From assembly GCA_028688415.1 (NCBI GenBank), contig JAQTYF010000001.1, positions 577,895 to 641,894 on the forward strand: DNA of 64,000 nucleotides, in the 5' to 3' direction. The position numbers and the translations under genes are program-made. Below the pieces are notes generated by a model, which made no database searches, had not been told where the DNA came from, and worked only from the letters and a program-made list of their open reading frames with translations. The DNA comes from Candidatus Moraniibacteriota bacterium (GTDB lineage: Bacteria > Patescibacteriota > Minisyncoccia > Moranbacterales > UBA1568). Of the stretch, positions 1,621 to 11,558 are shown piece by piece (within the stretch, counting starts at the first letter, position 1; every line of letters starts with the position of its first letter).

Positions 1621-2376
1621 TCAAGAGACGCCGTACTGCTCCCGGTAAGCAAGTATCTTCCTGAGTGCCTCAAATGGCGGTTCTGCGTTATTGTTGATGT
1701 CGCTTGGATCGTAGGAATCACAGTAGCACTGCAAAACCCCAATGAGATCAGAGAGTGTCGCAGCAGCACGAACAGGAATGCCGTAATTCTGTTCAAATTC
1801 CTGCACGGCCGACAAATTACCGTCTTTACTTCGTTCCTGCCGATCGAATGCAATCACACAACCGATAGGAGTACCACCATTGACACGAATAATTTCGACC
1901 GCTTCCCCAGAAGATGTTCCCGTCGTCATGACATCGTCGACGACAAGGACTTTTTTTCCTTGAAGCGATGTGCTACCGACAACAATACCACCTTCGCCAT
2001 GGTCTTTTTCTTCCTTGCGGTTAAAGGCGTACTCAATACTGTTGCCGAGAGTCGCCGCAACGGCAGCGACCAATGGAATGCCCTTATATGCTGGGCCGAA
2101 AATGACATCCGGACGACCATACTTGAGTTCGTCCTTATAGACATTGACAGCATACGCTTTGGCAAGTTCAGAGAGGGTGCCTCCGGTATTAAACAAACCA
2201 GAGTTGAAGAAGTAGGGCGAGGACCGCCCACTCTTCAGTTTGCGCCCCTCCGGAACCAACTCCAGAGCCCTGATGCGTAACGCGTAAGAAACGAATTCTT
2301 CAGCGGATGGGATAAGAGATTCTATCATGATAAGTCTTCTTTCTCTCGCGATGCGAGTTGGTTGGTTGAAATTCAA
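1621..2376 (-). CDS. pyrE: Orotate phosphoribosyltransferase
   Basis: PRTase motif VLVVDDVMTTGTS; OPRT-like layout; 4-nt overlap with the pyrF stop. Confidence 0.85.
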   Translation of the reverse strand: MNFNQPTRIARERRLIMIESLIPSAEEFVSYALRIRALELVPEGRKLKSGRSSPYFFNSGLFNTGGTLSELAKAYAVNVYKDELKYGRPDVIFGPAYKGIPLVAAVAATLGNSIEYAFNRKEEKDHGEGGIVVGSTSLQGKKVLVVDDVMTTGTSSGEAVEIIRVNGGTPIGCVIAFDRQERSKDGNLSAVQEFEQNYGIPVRAAATLSDLIGVLQCYCDSYDPSDINNNAEPPFEALRKILAYREQYGVS

Positions 2377-3344
2377 AATGGATACTTGCCAGCCCGTTTG
2401 AGACCAGCGTTCAGATCATCGCGTGAAAACTCGGCAGACTTCGCAGCTGCTTGTGCGAAATATTTCGAATCACAAGCAAATTGCCCCTTTGCCCAAGCGC
2501 CGGTCACACCACGTGATGAATTGATAACAGCACCAAAGCCATCGTCGTTGAACAGCGCTGCGCAGTCATTCGCCGTAGCGCCCTGACCACCATAACCCGG
2601 GCCAAGAAACAGTCCTTTCGGAAGAATTCTTCGCATTTTGACTGCGTCTTCAGGAAAAGTCGCTCCCATGACAACGCCCAAATTGCGATAGCCGTTCTGG
2701 CCCTCTGTACCTTCGCCCCACACACTAACGAGCTTGGCCAGCTCTTCCCAAACGGTAAAACAACTCTGTGTCACCAATTGCTCAACCGCAGAGTTAGGTG
2801 CAAACGATGTCTTGTCGACAACAAAAGCGCCCGTGCCATGAGTCTTGATTTGATTCACAAAATGCAGAACGCCAGCTTCGCCAATGTACCCGGCGCCAAC
2901 AGTCACAGCATCAGCACGAATTGAGGTTTCTTTTATTTCCCCATCGAAAAATGGGATTCCACCAATGTGTGCGCCCGCGTAGGCCTTTGCTGTTTCTCCG
3001 CCGTCAGTGCACTTAGCATCGTTGATGACGAGAAGGCCCTTGCTGTGAGCATAGGCGATAGTCGCCTCGAATGCCCAAGACAAAAAATGGCTGCCGGTGT
3101 AAAAAGCCAATTGCGGTTTCACGGCGACAGCAAATGGTTCAATGGCGTCGATGATTGCCACATTGGAATCATAGTACAAGTGCCCAAGAGCCTCCCATGT
3201 TTTCTCATGTTTGGCAACCACGACATCAACAAGATGCAATGGCATGAATTGAAACTGGGGATCGAGCCCGACGCAAAGTACGCTTTTTTTCGCAATCATT
3301 GCGGCTTGAAGCCGATCCACAAAAGTCGACGATTTGATATTCAT
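2373..3344 (-). CDS. pyrF: Orotidine 5'-phosphate decarboxylase (long, type 2)
   Basis: VGLDP and LVINDAK-type motifs of OMP decarboxylase; 323 aa; directly upstream of pyrE. Confidence 0.8.
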   Translation of the reverse strand: MNIKSSTFVDRLQAAMIAKKSVLCVGLDPQFQFMPLHLVDVVVAKHEKTWEALGHLYYDSNVAIIDAIEPFAVAVKPQLAFYTGSHFLSWAFEATIAYAHSKGLLVINDAKCTDGGETAKAYAGAHIGGIPFFDGEIKETSIRADAVTVGAGYIGEAGVLHFVNQIKTHGTGAFVVDKTSFAPNSAVEQLVTQSCFTVWEELAKLVSVWGEGTEGQNGYRNLGVVMGATFPEDAVKMRRILPKGLFLGPGYGGQGATANDCAALFNDDGFGAVINSSRGVTGAWAKGQFACDSKYFAQAAAKSAEFSRDDLNAGLKRAGKYPF

Positions 3345-3844: not shown

Positions 3845-4006
3845 TTATTTGCTCTCAGCGTGAGGAGTGTTCTTCTTACAAAAACGACAATATTTCGAAA
3901 GAGCAAGCTTTTCTTTCACCTTTTTCTTATTGCGCTTGGTGTAATGTGTGATACGACTACACAGAGAACACTTCAGTTTTACCATGGTATCTTTTATCTG
4001 TCCCAT
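3845..4006 (-). CDS. rpmG: 50S ribosomal protein L33
   Basis: Manual translation MGQIKDTMVKLKCSLCSRITHYTKRNKKKVKEKLALSKYCRFCKKNTPHAESK (53 aa) carries the L33 Cys4 zinc ribbon. Below the 60-aa ORF-track cutoff. Sits between tRNA genes, the usual tRNA/rpmG context. Confidence 0.8.
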   Translation of the reverse strand: MGQIKDTMVKLKCSLCSRITHYTKRNKKKVKEKLALSKYCRFCKKNTPHAESK

Positions 4007-4086
4007 AACACTCTTCTTTACTAGCTATTTACAAAGCCTTTCTACTCTACCTGAAAGAAGGCTATTCGTCAACCTGAGCCGTTGAT

Positions 4087-4159
4087 CGGGATTGAACCGA
4101 TGACCTCGTCATTACCAATGACGTGCTCTACCAACTGAGCTACAACGGCATACTTTCAA
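4087..4159 (-). tRNA. tRNA-Thr (anticodon GGT)
   Basis: Reverse complement GCCGTTGTAGCTCAGTTGGTAGAGCACGTCATTGGTAATGACGAGGTCATCGGTTCAATCCCGATCAACGGCT. Anticodon stem GTCAT/ATGAC, loop TGGTAAT. Confidence 0.8.
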
Positions 4160-4273
4160 AGCACTTTGTATAGACTATCAAGAAATGTGTGCTCTGGCAA
4201 GAAAAATCTTATGGACGAAGAGATTAATTCAGTTGTTTCATTCAGAGAAATATAGAAACTGATAATAAGTGTT

Positions 4274-4312
4274 TGAAAAAGAAAAAGGCCGATGAATGAT
4301 ATCATACGGCCT
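4274..4312 (-). terminator. Rho-independent terminator downstream of the GC-rich ORF
   Basis: Minus-strand transcript forms the hairpin ggccgtatgatatcattcatcggcc followed by tttttctttttc. Confidence 0.45.
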
Positions 4313-4348
4313 CAAGGCGAGTTTTCGCATGAAGGGAACAAGTGACGT

Positions 4349-4735
4349 CTACGCGTCATTGAAGCATTGCCAGAACTCCTGGCGGGTCTTGACCGGCTTC
4401 ACGACTTCCGCGGAGTTGTGATCAAAGAGAAACAGAGCGAATGCATGATTCGGAAAACCCTGTCTCATCCAGTACTCGGCCGCTTCAGGAGATTTTTGCT
4501 GAAGCGCTTCGATTGCGTGCGTCTGGAGCACGATGTAGCCGGGGTAGTCCAGGACTTCAAGTCCCGTCTCCACATCATGCATCGTGTCACCTGCGTTTGA
4601 TGGCACTCCGTCGTGTGAAAACAGACACGGCACCTCGACCCCGATCCACTGCTCACGGATCTGGAGTGGTGCTCCCCCGCGTGGGACGGAAATGAAGCGG
4701 ATCGTCCCCAGATCTTCCATTTGAATTTGGCGCAT
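4349..4735 (-). CDS. Hypothetical protein in an approximately 55 % GC islet (possible acquired gene; start uncertain, ORF open to 4795)
   Basis: The ~450 bp of coding sequence is about 55 % GC against ~38 % around it. Chosen start MRQIQMEDLG has gagagg 8 nt upstream. Has its own terminator. No recognised domain. Confidence 0.45.
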   Translation of the reverse strand: MRQIQMEDLGTIRFISVPRGGAPLQIREQWIGVEVPCLFSHDGVPSNAGDTMHDVETGLEVLDYPGYIVLQTHAIEALQQKSPEAAEYWMRQGFPNHAFALFLFDHNSAEVVKPVKTRQEFWQCFNDA

Positions 4736-4881
4736 GAAAAAACCTCTCATTCCAGAACACATGCCAACACAGGCAAGATGTAATAAGATAATCACGAATA
4801 AGACTAAGAGTCAATGGTCCATTCGAATCCTATCCTAAATAACAAAAACGAGGATTTTTAACCCATCATTATATATTATGG

Positions 4882-5046
4882 GATTCAGTCACAAATATTT
4901 TTCTTGCCGTCGCACTTCTCGAAAGCCAAACAAATTTGAAGAGGGATTCCTCCTCCACCATCGCTGTGCCGGAGGCACCGCGACTCCTCCAGAGCCTGGG
5001 TTTTTCAAAAGCCAAGCATATTTAGATTCGGTCACAAATATTTTTC
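4882..5046. repeat. Pair of 22-bp direct repeats gattc(a/g)gtcacaaatatttttc (4882..4903 and 5025..5046) in the non-coding stretch between the GC-rich ORF and tRNA-Tyr
   Basis: 21 of 22 positions identical, 143 bp apart. Additional hairpins ggaggcaccgcgactcctcc and gaaagccaagtagttggctttc. The overlapping ORF 4878..5315(+) runs across tRNA-Tyr and is judged spurious. Confidence 0.5.
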
Positions 5047-5165
5047 CTGACGGAAAAATTTCGCGTCCCCGTCTCACGGTATTCGCCTTGCTCTGCGAGC
5101 AAACTCATACATCGTTCCGACTTTCTCATCCCTCTCGAAAGCCAAGTAGTTGGCTTTCTCCTGCC

Positions 5166-5204
5166 AAAAATAAAAAAACTTCCTTTCGGAAGTTATTTTA
5201 TTTT
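5166..5204 (-). terminator. Intrinsic (bidirectional-type) terminator after tRNA-Tyr
   Basis: aaaaaaacttcctttcggaagttattttatttt: stem aacttcc/ggaagtt, A-run upstream, T-run downstream. Confidence 0.6.
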
Positions 5205-5205
5205 G

Positions 5206-5288
5206 TGGGCAGGGAGGGATTCGAACCCCCGAAGGCCGAAGCCGACAGATTTACAGTCTGTTGTAATAGACCACTCTACCACCTACCC
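5206..5288 (-). tRNA. tRNA-Tyr (anticodon GTA), long variable arm
   Basis: Reverse complement GGGTAGGTGGTAGAGTGGTCTATTACAACAGACTGTAAATCTGTCGGCTTCGGCCTTCGGGGGTTCGAATCCCTCCCTGCCCA. Anticodon stem ACAGA/TCTGT, loop CTGTAAA. Class II variable arm. Confidence 0.8.
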
Positions 5289-10785: not shown

Positions 10786-10818
10786 CAAAAACTCCGATAA
10801 ACGGAGTTTTTGTTTTTT
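10786..10818. terminator. Bidirectional intrinsic terminator (prmC / lysine-rich gene)
   Basis: aaaaactccgataaacggagtttttgtttttt: stem actccg/cggagt flanked by A- and T-runs. Confidence 0.65.
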
Positions 10819-10847
10819 GAACCAAAAGAAATGGAACAGAAAAACGA

Positions 10848-11006
10848 TTATCGTTTCTTTGTTACTTTCTTAGCGGCCTTCTTGACTACTTTTTTTACAG
10901 CTTTTTTTGTAACTTTCTTAGCTACTTTTTTTACAGCTTTTTTTGTAACTTTCTTAGCTACTTTTTTTACAGCTTTTTTTACTGTTTTCTTTTTTGCTAC
11001 TGCCAT
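10848..11006 (-). CDS. Small lysine-rich repeat protein (52 aa), histone H1-like/basic nucleoid-protein-like composition
   Basis: Manual translation MAVAKKKTVKKAVKKVAKKVTKKAVKKVAKKVTKKAVKKVVKKAAKKVTKKR with strong SD aaggaggtga 5 nt upstream. The track ORF 10810..11025(+) is the opposite strand of the same repeats. Confidence 0.6.
   Translation of the reverse strand: MAVAKKKTVKKAVKKVAKKVTKKAVKKVAKKVTKKAVKKVVKKAAKKVTKKR
10861..10980. repeat. About 3.3 tandem copies of a 36-bp unit (gtaactttcttagctactttttttacagcttttttt) inside the lysine-rich CDS
   Basis: Two perfect units at 10909..10944 and 10945..10980, plus a diverged unit with a 12-nt insertion. Units keep the frame and encode KKAVKKVAKKVT. 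Not CRISPR-like. Confidence 0.6.
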
Positions 11007-11408
11007 AGTACTCACCTCCTTCTAACCACTCTTCTTTTGTTTCATATGTTTATGAAACAGAAAAAAGAAATATGGAATTATTTATTTTTGTTTCACACAA
11101 TAATTTTTGTGCGTATTACAGAAAATTATTTCTGCATACTTTTATTATACTCTTTTTTTAGAAATTGCAAAGGAAAAAAATATCTGTCAACCCCCTCATT
11201 CTCTTTTTTTGTAAAAATAATTTTTTATTTTTTCTTATAAAAATATTTCTTCTTTTATTCTGAAAAAATAAAAGAGAAAAATATTCATTCAATTATAAAA
11301 AAGAGTACACACTCATAAAAATAAAAAGAAGAAAAATAATTACCAAGAAAAATATTTTTCTATATTATCTTCCCTTTTATTACGCCAAAAATAGAATGAT
11401 TTGTCCAG

Positions 11409-11437
11409 TTGACAGCTGTTTTTCGAAGACGTAGTAT
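11409..11437 (+). promoter_or_regulatory. Consensus sigma70-type promoter TTGACA-17-TAGTAT upstream of the 11559 gene
   Basis: ttgaca at 11409-11414, 17-nt spacer, tagtat at 11432-11437; about 120 nt before the ATG; in a ~550-bp AT-rich divergent intergenic region. Confidence 0.5.
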
Positions 11438-11558
11438 GAGAGGCAGAGCGGTCGATTAACTTATCGATGACACAAAAGATAGGTAAGTTAAAAGAAGCTT
11501 CAACGTAAGCCAGTACCTTATTAATCTTCATAAAAACTAGAAAGAGGGGTGAAAAGAT

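Follow-up and report, generated by a model that had tools for sequence, protein, structure and literature searches.

A stretch of 64,000 nucleotides of DNA from Candidatus Moraniibacteriota bacterium (the window) holds, inside a cluster of tRNA genes, a GC-rich gene for an acidic protein of 128 amino acids. We found that this gene is an insertion at the cluster, polymorphic in its presence among relatives, and that it is part of a unit of promoter, gene and terminator whose boundaries stay constant while its surroundings vary. We consider it probable that the unit is a mobile single-gene cassette that accreted at the 3' flank of tRNA-Tyr by site-specific recombination, with a recombinase acting in trans. 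All coordinates are window positions unless a comparison locus (L001, L003 and so on) is named, and every feature of this region lies on the minus strand.

The gene is missing from the same tRNA cluster in a close relative

Two Joint Genome Institute (JGI) contigs, L104 and L105, encode an L33 protein identical to that of the window and an EF-Ts with 91% amino acid identity. They share with the window the order EF-Ts, tetratricopeptide repeat (TPR) protein, tRNA-Thr, tRNA-Tyr, tRNA-Thr, rpmG, tRNA-Trp and tRNA-Glu. In a global alignment, window 5392-5064 corresponds to L104 1125-1636 and window 4206-3546 to L104 1771-2500, while nothing in L104 corresponds to window ~4207-5030, the segment that holds the gene; the gene is absent from both L104 and L105. 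The extra DNA starts after tRNA-Tyr and its trailer and stops before the region upstream of tRNA-Thr(GGT). This upstream region (4150..4206) is native, as the alignment pairs window 4206-4151 with L104 1771-1825. An earlier reading of the letters alone (the sequence-only reading) had placed the gene between tRNA-Thr(GGT) (4076-4149) and tRNA-Tyr (5205-5288), interpreted it as the remnant of a small mobile insertion and proposed a presence/absence comparison with related tRNA clusters. The position was correct, the comparison revealed the same cluster without the gene, and this empty site, together with the more than 10 unrelated contexts and the bracketing repeats of several relatives described below, bears the interpretation out.

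The gene also stands apart in base composition. Its GC content is 55.6%, in agreement with the earlier estimate of ~55%, compared with 41.6% for the window; with a standard deviation (sd) of 4.3% for 387-nt windows, this places it in the top 0.08% of windows of its size. The local background, previously given as ~38%, is 41.6% over the window, with 35.7% and 41.6% on the two immediate flanks of the gene. GC content at third codon positions (GC3) is 0.651, versus 0.373 +/- 0.047 (maximum 0.50) for the 42 other long open reading frames (ORFs) of the window, a value 5.9 sd higher. The compositional deviation that the sequence-only reading had proposed to check is real and strong.

The cassette recurs as a unit in unrelated contexts

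DNA similarity between the window and every other gene-bearing locus (more than ten) is confined to ~4236-4860, and the flanks are unrelated. The closest copies, in L016, L018, L106 and L108, are 77-87% identical by blastn from window position 4860/4848 to 4236/4269; more distant copies have ~70-82% DNA identity, some of them over the coding part only. This unit of ~620 nt, comprising promoter, gene and terminator, sits in more than 10 unrelated contexts in other genomes of the Candidate Phyla Radiation (CPR), including rpsO/NYN-pnp, a ParE toxin-antitoxin locus, ABC/FtsX, cupin, glycosyl hydrolase, fusA and tRNA-Asn. Even copies that are 89-91% identical are found at other sites. A scan of 185,579 species genomes with short peptide patterns, a method of limited sensitivity, gave 8 matches.

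In the window the conserved cassette (4236..4860, delimited by blastn) consists of a leader, promoter, 5' untranslated region (5' UTR), gene, terminator and short tail. Its start is marked by a T-loop-like motif, GGATTCGAAT (4821..4830), 6-7 nt upstream of the -35 box, so that GGATTCGAAT-N6-TTGACT spans window 4830-4809. A motif of this type with the same spacing is present in L018, L001, L021, L026 and L108. In L108 the family cassette is followed directly by another unit that starts with GGGATTCGAAC-N6-TTGACT. Within the window GGATTCGAAT is unique, and the loose pattern used to search for it there is no commoner than chance; it is possibly the relic half of a recombination site. Downstream of the motif, a promoter scan identified a sigma-70-type promoter (4785..4814; TTGACT, 18-nt spacer, TATCTT), whose -35 box and spacing are conserved in L001, L003, L008, L014, L016 and L018. 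Just downstream of the -10 box, these six loci and L106 also share the palindrome TGCC-N6-GGCA (4762..4775 in the window, within CATCTTGCC..GGCATGTGTTC). In the seven loci its arms are conserved and its loop varies, and it could be an operator or a small 5'-UTR hairpin. A ribosome-binding site, GAGAGG (4743-4748), precedes the 128-codon ORF, which runs from its ATG over 4349..4735. The gene is followed by an intrinsic terminator read from the sequence (4276..4311; GGCCG..CGGCC followed by a T-run), the gene's own terminator that had been noted earlier, and this feature is conserved in L016, L018, L008 and L106.

Direct repeats and arrays surround cassettes in relatives

We compared 540 nt upstream with 600 nt downstream of the gene at 15 independent loci, using the self-score of a local alignment and, as null, all cross-locus pairs (mean 10.7, 95th percentile 14). 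Significant direct repeats bracket the gene at five loci: L008 (19.5), L011 (19), L016 (30.5), L021 (17) and L027 (26.5); L001 is marginal with a score of 13. In L011 the neighbouring tRNA-Asn itself supplies the repeat: its genuine 3' end (GATCCCTACCCACGGAGC) is present in three copies, each of which, in our reading, is followed by its own terminator. The repeats of the other loci can be parsed as T-loop, 5 nt, 7 nt and discriminator, an arrangement that would resemble a tRNA 3' end.

Arrays of such motifs were also observed. Copies of TCGAAC|CNCCTCCARYYCNGCGCAC occur on the same strand three times in L021, four times in L026 and twice in L001. They separate unrelated single ORFs, each with a promoter and terminator of its own, and at two loci the bracketing repeats stand between tandem single-gene cassettes. 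In L026, unrelated single ORFs follow one another in tandem, each with a TTGACA promoter and a terminator that precedes the motif; over a stretch of ~75 nt, two of the 3' ends appear almost the same. As we read them, L021 would have one extra 80-aa cassette relative to L001, with which it has the upstream NYN gene in common, and the difference would fall at a motif boundary. Other cassette ORFs have 52-55% GC next to host genes or flanks of 34-37%. In L082, tRNA-Arg is followed, as we read the sequence, by an A-like element (element A is described below) that terminates in a partial copy of the tRNA-Arg 3' end, and then by a distant family member (34% identity), an arrangement that mirrors the window and L011. 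No integrase adjoins the arrays in L021 or L026. A linked integrase was rejected as a general explanation, as only three independent loci among the 104 sequences (103 loci and the window) have a tyrosine recombinase within 3 kb.

A separate element of ~110 nt, which we call X, was seen at L016 4019-4130, 4723-4835 and 6223-6328 (three copies in 2.3 kb), at L018 5488-5609, and downstream of the gene in L106. It contains a small covarying hairpin, GTTCGAAACGCGTCCCGCCAAGCGAG and a terminator, and may be an attachment-site (att)-plus-terminator module of this subgroup of cassettes.

A structured element lies between tRNA-Tyr and the gene

The sequence-only reading had described two 22-nt direct repeats flanking the gene. 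Both exist, at 4882-4903 and 5025-5046, 143 nt apart, where no chance matches are expected even at 3 mismatches, but they share one side of the gene, upstream of it, instead of flanking it. What the 22-mer represents is the conserved 3' portion of element A, a structured, RNA-like element of ~150 nt that in several CPR genomes comes right behind a tRNA and its terminator. The window holds one complete copy (5014..5166; 111 bits with covariance model R1), which contains the 22-mer at 5025-5046, and one internally deleted copy (4882..4937; delimited by the D1 and D2 repeat families), which contains the other. Alignment with full copies revealed that in the deleted copy (4937-4882) the first ~14 nt are joined to the last ~34 nt; R1 matches it weakly (4872-4964, E 0.26). 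The two copies belong to the non-coding stretch between tRNA-Tyr and the gene (4736-5204), which has no credible ORF and measures about 470 nt rather than the ~300 bp first reported.

Element A carries a clear structure signal. Among five copies from four tRNA contexts, 22 of the 40 pairs predicted in the consensus fold have compensatory changes, and single copies have minimum free energy (MFE) z-scores of -3.5 to -5.5. Covariance model R1, built from these copies, detected further ones. It gave 10 distinct loci-hits at E<=0.005, and eight of them have a tRNA on the same strand 17-54 nt upstream; the tRNAs ahead of these copies are Tyr, Asn (twice), Arg, Phe, Gly and His. Copies were found at L104 1546-1694, L011 3725-3862, L007 2894-3037, L082 1034-1162 and 2219-2307, L086 5102-5262 and L097 3551-3674, and the element also turns up close to genes of the protein family whose products have as little as 34-38% identity. 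Rfam 15 returned no family for element A in the window (E<=1) or in L104, L011, L031 and L007 (E<=0.1), only tRNAs and chance-level matches. A hammerhead or other known ribozyme, a transfer-messenger RNA (tmRNA) and a signal recognition particle (SRP) RNA were rejected for want of Rfam support.

The tRNA-Tyr gene of the window is followed by a trailer with a long terminator hairpin (5167..5204; inverted repeat I2 and terminator scan). The same arrangement is found in L104, where it is duplicated: after tRNA-Tyr comes a core of ~105 nt, with CTGTGACCGAATC at its end, and on either side of it a 75-nt direct repeat comprising the last 12 nt of the tRNA, the terminator and a hairpin (AACCAACTGCTTGGTT). 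Read by eye, the outer arms of the trailer can pair the 3' acceptor strand of the tRNA, CTCCCTGCC (in the tRNA gene), with GGCAGGAG (about 5156-5163, in element A). We suggest that the 5' end of A mimics the 5' acceptor strand of a tRNA and could pair with the 3' end of the preceding tRNA across the terminator, or with a duplicated 3' end. The element may function as RNA or, alternatively, as a recombination structure at the level of DNA. Between two 'TTGGCTTT(C/T)GA' repeats (D1 copies 5002-5023 and 4916-4937) lies a GC-rich piece of ~75 nt (4938..5012; repeat family D1 and terminator scan) with two to three hairpins and a terminator-like end. These GC-rich hairpins, at about 4938-5012, are the strong hairpins that had been recognised earlier. 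The piece is absent from L104 and is possibly the tail of a lost insertion.

Several other roles for these repeats were rejected. The 22-mers are not att sites or target duplications: they lie on one side of the gene, form the 3' end of A, an element that L104 possesses even though it lacks the gene. As possible transposon ends there was a single inverted repeat (4189-4210 / 4894-4915, 82%), which was dismissed because one of its arms is native DNA upstream of tRNA-Thr that L104 also has; no target-site duplication was found, and the test for an insertion sequence or miniature inverted-repeat transposable element (MITE) was negative. Nor is A a cis-regulator of the gene: L104 has A alone, the copies of L086 and L097 are on the opposite strand, and terminators stand between A and the gene.

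The cassette encodes a conserved acidic protein

The gene had been given as 128-148 aa. The ORF has 128 aa from its ATG, and homologues begin at MRQIQ; a protein of 148 aa would need a GTG start that falls within the promoter. Over residues 6-128 the protein is 100% identical to a hypothetical protein on record from a 939-kb contig of a Candidatus Moranbacteria metagenome-assembled genome (MAG). Its close homologues (n=56) have 127-128 aa and 55-91% identity and, where source names are given, come only from CPR MAGs. Comparison of the gene with six close homologues gave dN/dS of 0.07-0.15 at dS of 0.45-1.7; the ORF is a real gene under purifying selection. A profile search returned 874 cluster representatives at E<=1e-3, some of them duplicated or fused to other domains. 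In L026 (1333-1719), the family gene of the cassette array has an in-frame stop (..DYPG*IVLQ..), reflecting a decaying copy or a sequencing error.

High GC is a property of the family. The gene has 51-58% GC in all CPR loci compared, regardless of flanks that range from 36 to 49%, and its GC3 is 0.48-0.66 (for example window 4349-4735, L003 4001-4387 and L022 5001-5381), even with synonymous divergence between copies at saturation (dS up to 1.7). Either the cassettes never stay long in one host lineage, or the composition itself is selected.

The function of the protein was sought in sequence, structure and neighbourhood. It has no match in Pfam, NCBIfam, PHROG, PADLOC or PDB sequences, and its distant relatives likewise have none in Pfam, NCBIfam, PHROG or PADLOC. 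The AlphaFold model has a predicted local distance difference test (pLDDT) score of 88; fold searches with the protein gave no significant match, and none in BFVD. Members of the family are acidic, with an isoelectric point (pI) below 6 in 78% of them and a net charge of -2 to -12 in the CPR clade. Such acidity disfavours contact with nucleic acids and suits a protein that binds other proteins, so that a protein-binding or inhibitor function is possible. Our best guess, held with low confidence, is an acidic protein-binding accessory factor. Gene neighbourhoods of distant homologues were rejected as a guide because they have no conserved partner; the neighbours include restriction-modification genes, PIF1 helicase and NUDIX. 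The sequence-only reading had suggested an immunity-like or toxin-associated cargo. The unit is monocistronic, with no partner gene in the cassette and no toxin, antitoxin, immunity or defence family match in Pfam, NCBIfam, PHROG or PADLOC, and this idea, though possible, has no positive evidence in its favour. A phage origin was rejected: relatives of the CPR clade of the family are absent from IMG/VR, BFVD has no fold match and PHROG no match for the domain.

A model for cassette accretion and its alternatives

The account that we favour is as follows. Window ~4207-5030 would be DNA accreted at the 3' flank of tRNA-Tyr, with the cassette (4236-4860) as its main part. The cassette would stem from a pool of GC-rich cassettes moving between CPR genomes, and it would integrate and excise through site-specific recombination, the sites being short, similar to the T-loop-to-3'-end segment of a tRNA and with a core that contains TTCGAA. 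Because the cassette encodes no recombinase, we infer that the enzyme acts in trans. Repeated integration would build tandem arrays beside tRNA genes or tRNA-like sites. In the window, the att copies on both sides would have been lost; as neither side has a recognisable copy, this cassette is probably immobilised or fixed.

A number of observations weigh against such a mechanism. In the window itself the cassette has no bracketing direct repeat, with a score of 10.5 against a null mean of 10.7, and a second copy of the tRNA-Tyr 3' end (up to 3 mismatches) or of the tRNA-Glu 3' end was not found there, so that the case for the window copy is a comparative one only. Significant flanking repeats are likewise missing at 10 of the 15 loci. 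The parsing of the junction motifs as tRNA 3' ends is our own reading and carries no statistical test, and the motif of L027 has a non-canonical position 61. The cassette has no recombinase (its only ORF, of 128 aa, has no recombinase domain), and tblastn with one tyrosine recombinase query, the only one used, found none in the 64-kb window; a tyrosine recombinase within 3 kb is confined to the three independent loci mentioned above. Neither an excised circle nor an empty/occupied pair within one population was observed. The dS of 0.45-1.7 between copies implies that the transfers were not recent, and GC3 that stays high despite dS >1 is not explained by a simple lack of amelioration.

These points leave room for other explanations. 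Cassettes might spread as naked DNA that competent CPR cells take up and patch in by RecA- or microhomology-dependent recombination, without a site-specific recombinase, the repeats being by-products of single-crossover insertion or tandem duplication. The flanking repeats do vary between loci in length (17-78 nt) and sequence, many loci have none that is detectable, no integrase is linked, and the 75-nt duplication of L104 reaches well past the tRNA. We nevertheless judge fragment capture unlikely, given that the cassette boundaries are constant across unrelated contexts, that the junction motifs have a common TTCGAA-type core in one orientation and form arrays separating unrelated ORFs, and that L021 and L001, as we read them, differ at the motif. 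A fixed start of the form GGATTCGAAY-N6-TTGACT is also not expected from homology-driven capture. Loss from the relative is another option: an old, vertically inherited and selected CPR gene, with poor synteny, a deletion in L104 and GC content shaped by selection on mRNA or codons. Strong purifying selection, the large dS between copies, GC3 that is high at dS >1 (fitting selection on composition) and partial synteny between L003 and L011 (ABC/FtsX) and between L007 and L011 (fmt/PPIase/S30AE) all speak for a resident gene. We give it only a small chance, however, because the gene interrupts a tRNA-Thr/Tyr/Thr-rpmG cluster that is conserved in other respects, copies that are 89-91% identical occupy other sites, and non-coding promoter and terminator DNA travels along while the flanks share nothing. 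The direct repeats and arrays of relatives and the patchy distribution, namely the 8 matches obtained with short peptide patterns of limited sensitivity, point the same way.

As a special case of cassette mobility, a housekeeping Xer-type recombinase could move the units in the manner of the integrative mobile elements exploiting Xer (IMEX) and pdif modules. The motif ..GCGCAC / GTGCGC.. resembles a XerC arm of dif; in the reverse complement of the L021 motif (GGTGCGCCGAG), 8 of 11 positions agree with that arm in E. coli. There is a XerC/D-type gene at a distance of 1.4 kb from the L001 array, and a dedicated integrase is lacking. The comparison with dif was made by eye only, and the motif shows no dyad symmetry of the 11-6-11 type found in dif; inverted rather than direct sites delimit pdif modules, and the window site is a tRNA flank, not a terminus. 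We regard the involvement of Xer as very unlikely. An assembly or binning artefact, with GC-rich DNA of foreign origin chimerically joined into a Moranbacteria contig, would fit a metagenome-assembled source and the abrupt change in composition. It is extremely improbable: both flanks are collinear with an independent relative, the identical protein lies on the 939-kb contig of a Moranbacteria MAG, and the cassette is found within low-GC CPR DNA in more than 20 independent assemblies.

Relationship to known integrative systems

In Prochlorococcus, tRNA-targeting integrative elements called tycheposons build genomic islands (Hackl et al., bioRxiv 10.1101/2020.12.28.424599). In the island-growth model, successive integrations push older, decaying elements inward and leave partial tRNAs (bioRxiv 10.1101/2020.12.28.424599). 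By analogy, the simplest account of the tRNA-Tyr flank would be a small accretion site as in tRNA-proximal islands. Like these islands, the unit of the window sits at a tRNA 3' flank, has an atypical composition and is polymorphic in its presence. Inserts in L011 and L082 are bracketed by partial-tRNA direct repeats, as is element A in L104. Tandem accumulation beside a tRNA, with degenerate remnants that lack clear boundaries, is a further likeness to tycheposon islands. However, the cassette has no integrase or other mobility gene, is a single-ORF unit of ~0.6 kb in CPR hosts, and in many of its copies lies beside tRNA-3'-like motifs instead of an intact tRNA. The window copy in addition lacks the direct repeats including a tRNA 3' segment (attL/attR) of tRNA-integrating islands.

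Integrase-less mobility has precedents. Cis-mobilisable elements (CIMEs), known from the literature on ICESt elements of Streptococcus thermophilus, are att-flanked DNA without an integrase that is mobilised by a related integrative element; they usually span several kb and derive from the decay of integrative and conjugative elements (ICEs). The cassettes share with CIMEs the absence of an integrase, att-like direct repeats (in relatives) and tandem accretion at one site, but a cognate ICE or integrase was not identified and att sites are not detectable in the window. Similarly, integron cassettes and clusters of attC sites lacking integron-integrases (CALIN) consist of single-ORF units of ~0.4-0.9 kb whose composition differs from that of the host, arranged in arrays of one orientation (as in L026 and L021) with a conserved repeat at the 3' end of each cassette. 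Integron ORFs mostly have no promoter and depend on Pc, with intI and attI heading the array. Here, by contrast, each cassette has its own strong TTGAC(T/A) promoter and a terminator, no intI-type integrase or attI was seen, and the junction site resembles a tRNA 3' end. On inspection, attC cores (RYYYAAC ... GTTRRRY) are absent from the junction motifs TCGAACCNCCTCCARYYCNGCGCAC, GGTTCGAACATCC.. and GAGAATCCGTCTCC... The sites of pdif modules are inverted (XerC/D-XerD/C), and dif is where IMEX integrate. The cassettes resemble these Acinetobacter modules in being small, without a recombinase of their own and presumably moved by a host tyrosine recombinase at short sites; they differ in that their sites are direct, tRNA-like and not at the terminus. 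In form, the unit is closer to integron cassettes or CIMEs, yet it lacks attC cores and has tRNA-like sites.

A broader and more tentative possibility, which we consider less likely than not, is that CPR bacteria have an undescribed integron-like cassette system. It would consist of GC-rich units of ~0.4-0.9 kb (promoter, one gene, terminator), a recombinase in trans, sites that mimic the T-loop-to-3'-end segment of tRNAs, and arrays at tRNA flanks or tRNA-like sites. Element A would be its non-coding member, with an acceptor-stem mimic that is duplicated together with a tRNA 3' end, and the window would hold one decayed example of each. A full-text literature search on integrative elements or integrons in Patescibacteria gave nothing relevant, and little was found on gene exchange in CPR bacteria. 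Taken alone, the window is a modest and ordinary result, a decayed horizontally acquired gene beside a tRNA. If small integrase-less cassettes with tRNA-like sites do circulate, they would provide a concrete, testable route of gene flow in the CPR and would explain GC-rich 'orphan' genes in tiny, AT-rich CPR genomes. The wider pattern of integrase-less GC-rich cassettes, tRNA-like sites and element A in the CPR merits a systematic survey, and two uncharacterised objects deserve attention: the protein family (874 representatives, without annotation or fold match) and the structured element of tRNA flanks that is absent from Rfam.

Other features of the tRNA cluster and its surroundings

The tRNA cluster begins upstream with tRNA-Thr(TGT) (5387-5314). 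It is followed by tRNA-Tyr(GTA) (5205..5288; ARAGORN and Rfam), which is collinear with tRNA-Tyr of L104 and has the extra DNA accumulated at its 3' flank. The L104 tRNA-Tyr(GTA) gene (1228-1509) has a 198-nt intron (1264-1461) after position 37 of the anticodon loop, for which Rfam gave no group I intron match at E<=0.1; the window gene is without an intron. Beyond the cassette, tRNA-Thr(GGT) (4076..4149) is followed by rpmG (3845-4006), tRNA-Trp and tRNA-Glu.

Directly downstream of tRNA-Glu, two adjoining minus-strand genes (235 and 323 aa; 1621-3344) have the next highest GC3 in the window, 0.50 and 0.485. L104 holds unrelated genes in their place, and the genes beyond (458-1446) are conserved. 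A repeat of the tRNA-Glu 3' end was not found in the window. Window 1621-3344 has the appearance of another variable islet, the second at this cluster. Elsewhere, a sharp AT-rich trough at about 10800-11550 has a GC content of 0.20-0.29 in 300-nt windows, compared with ~41% in the rest of the window.

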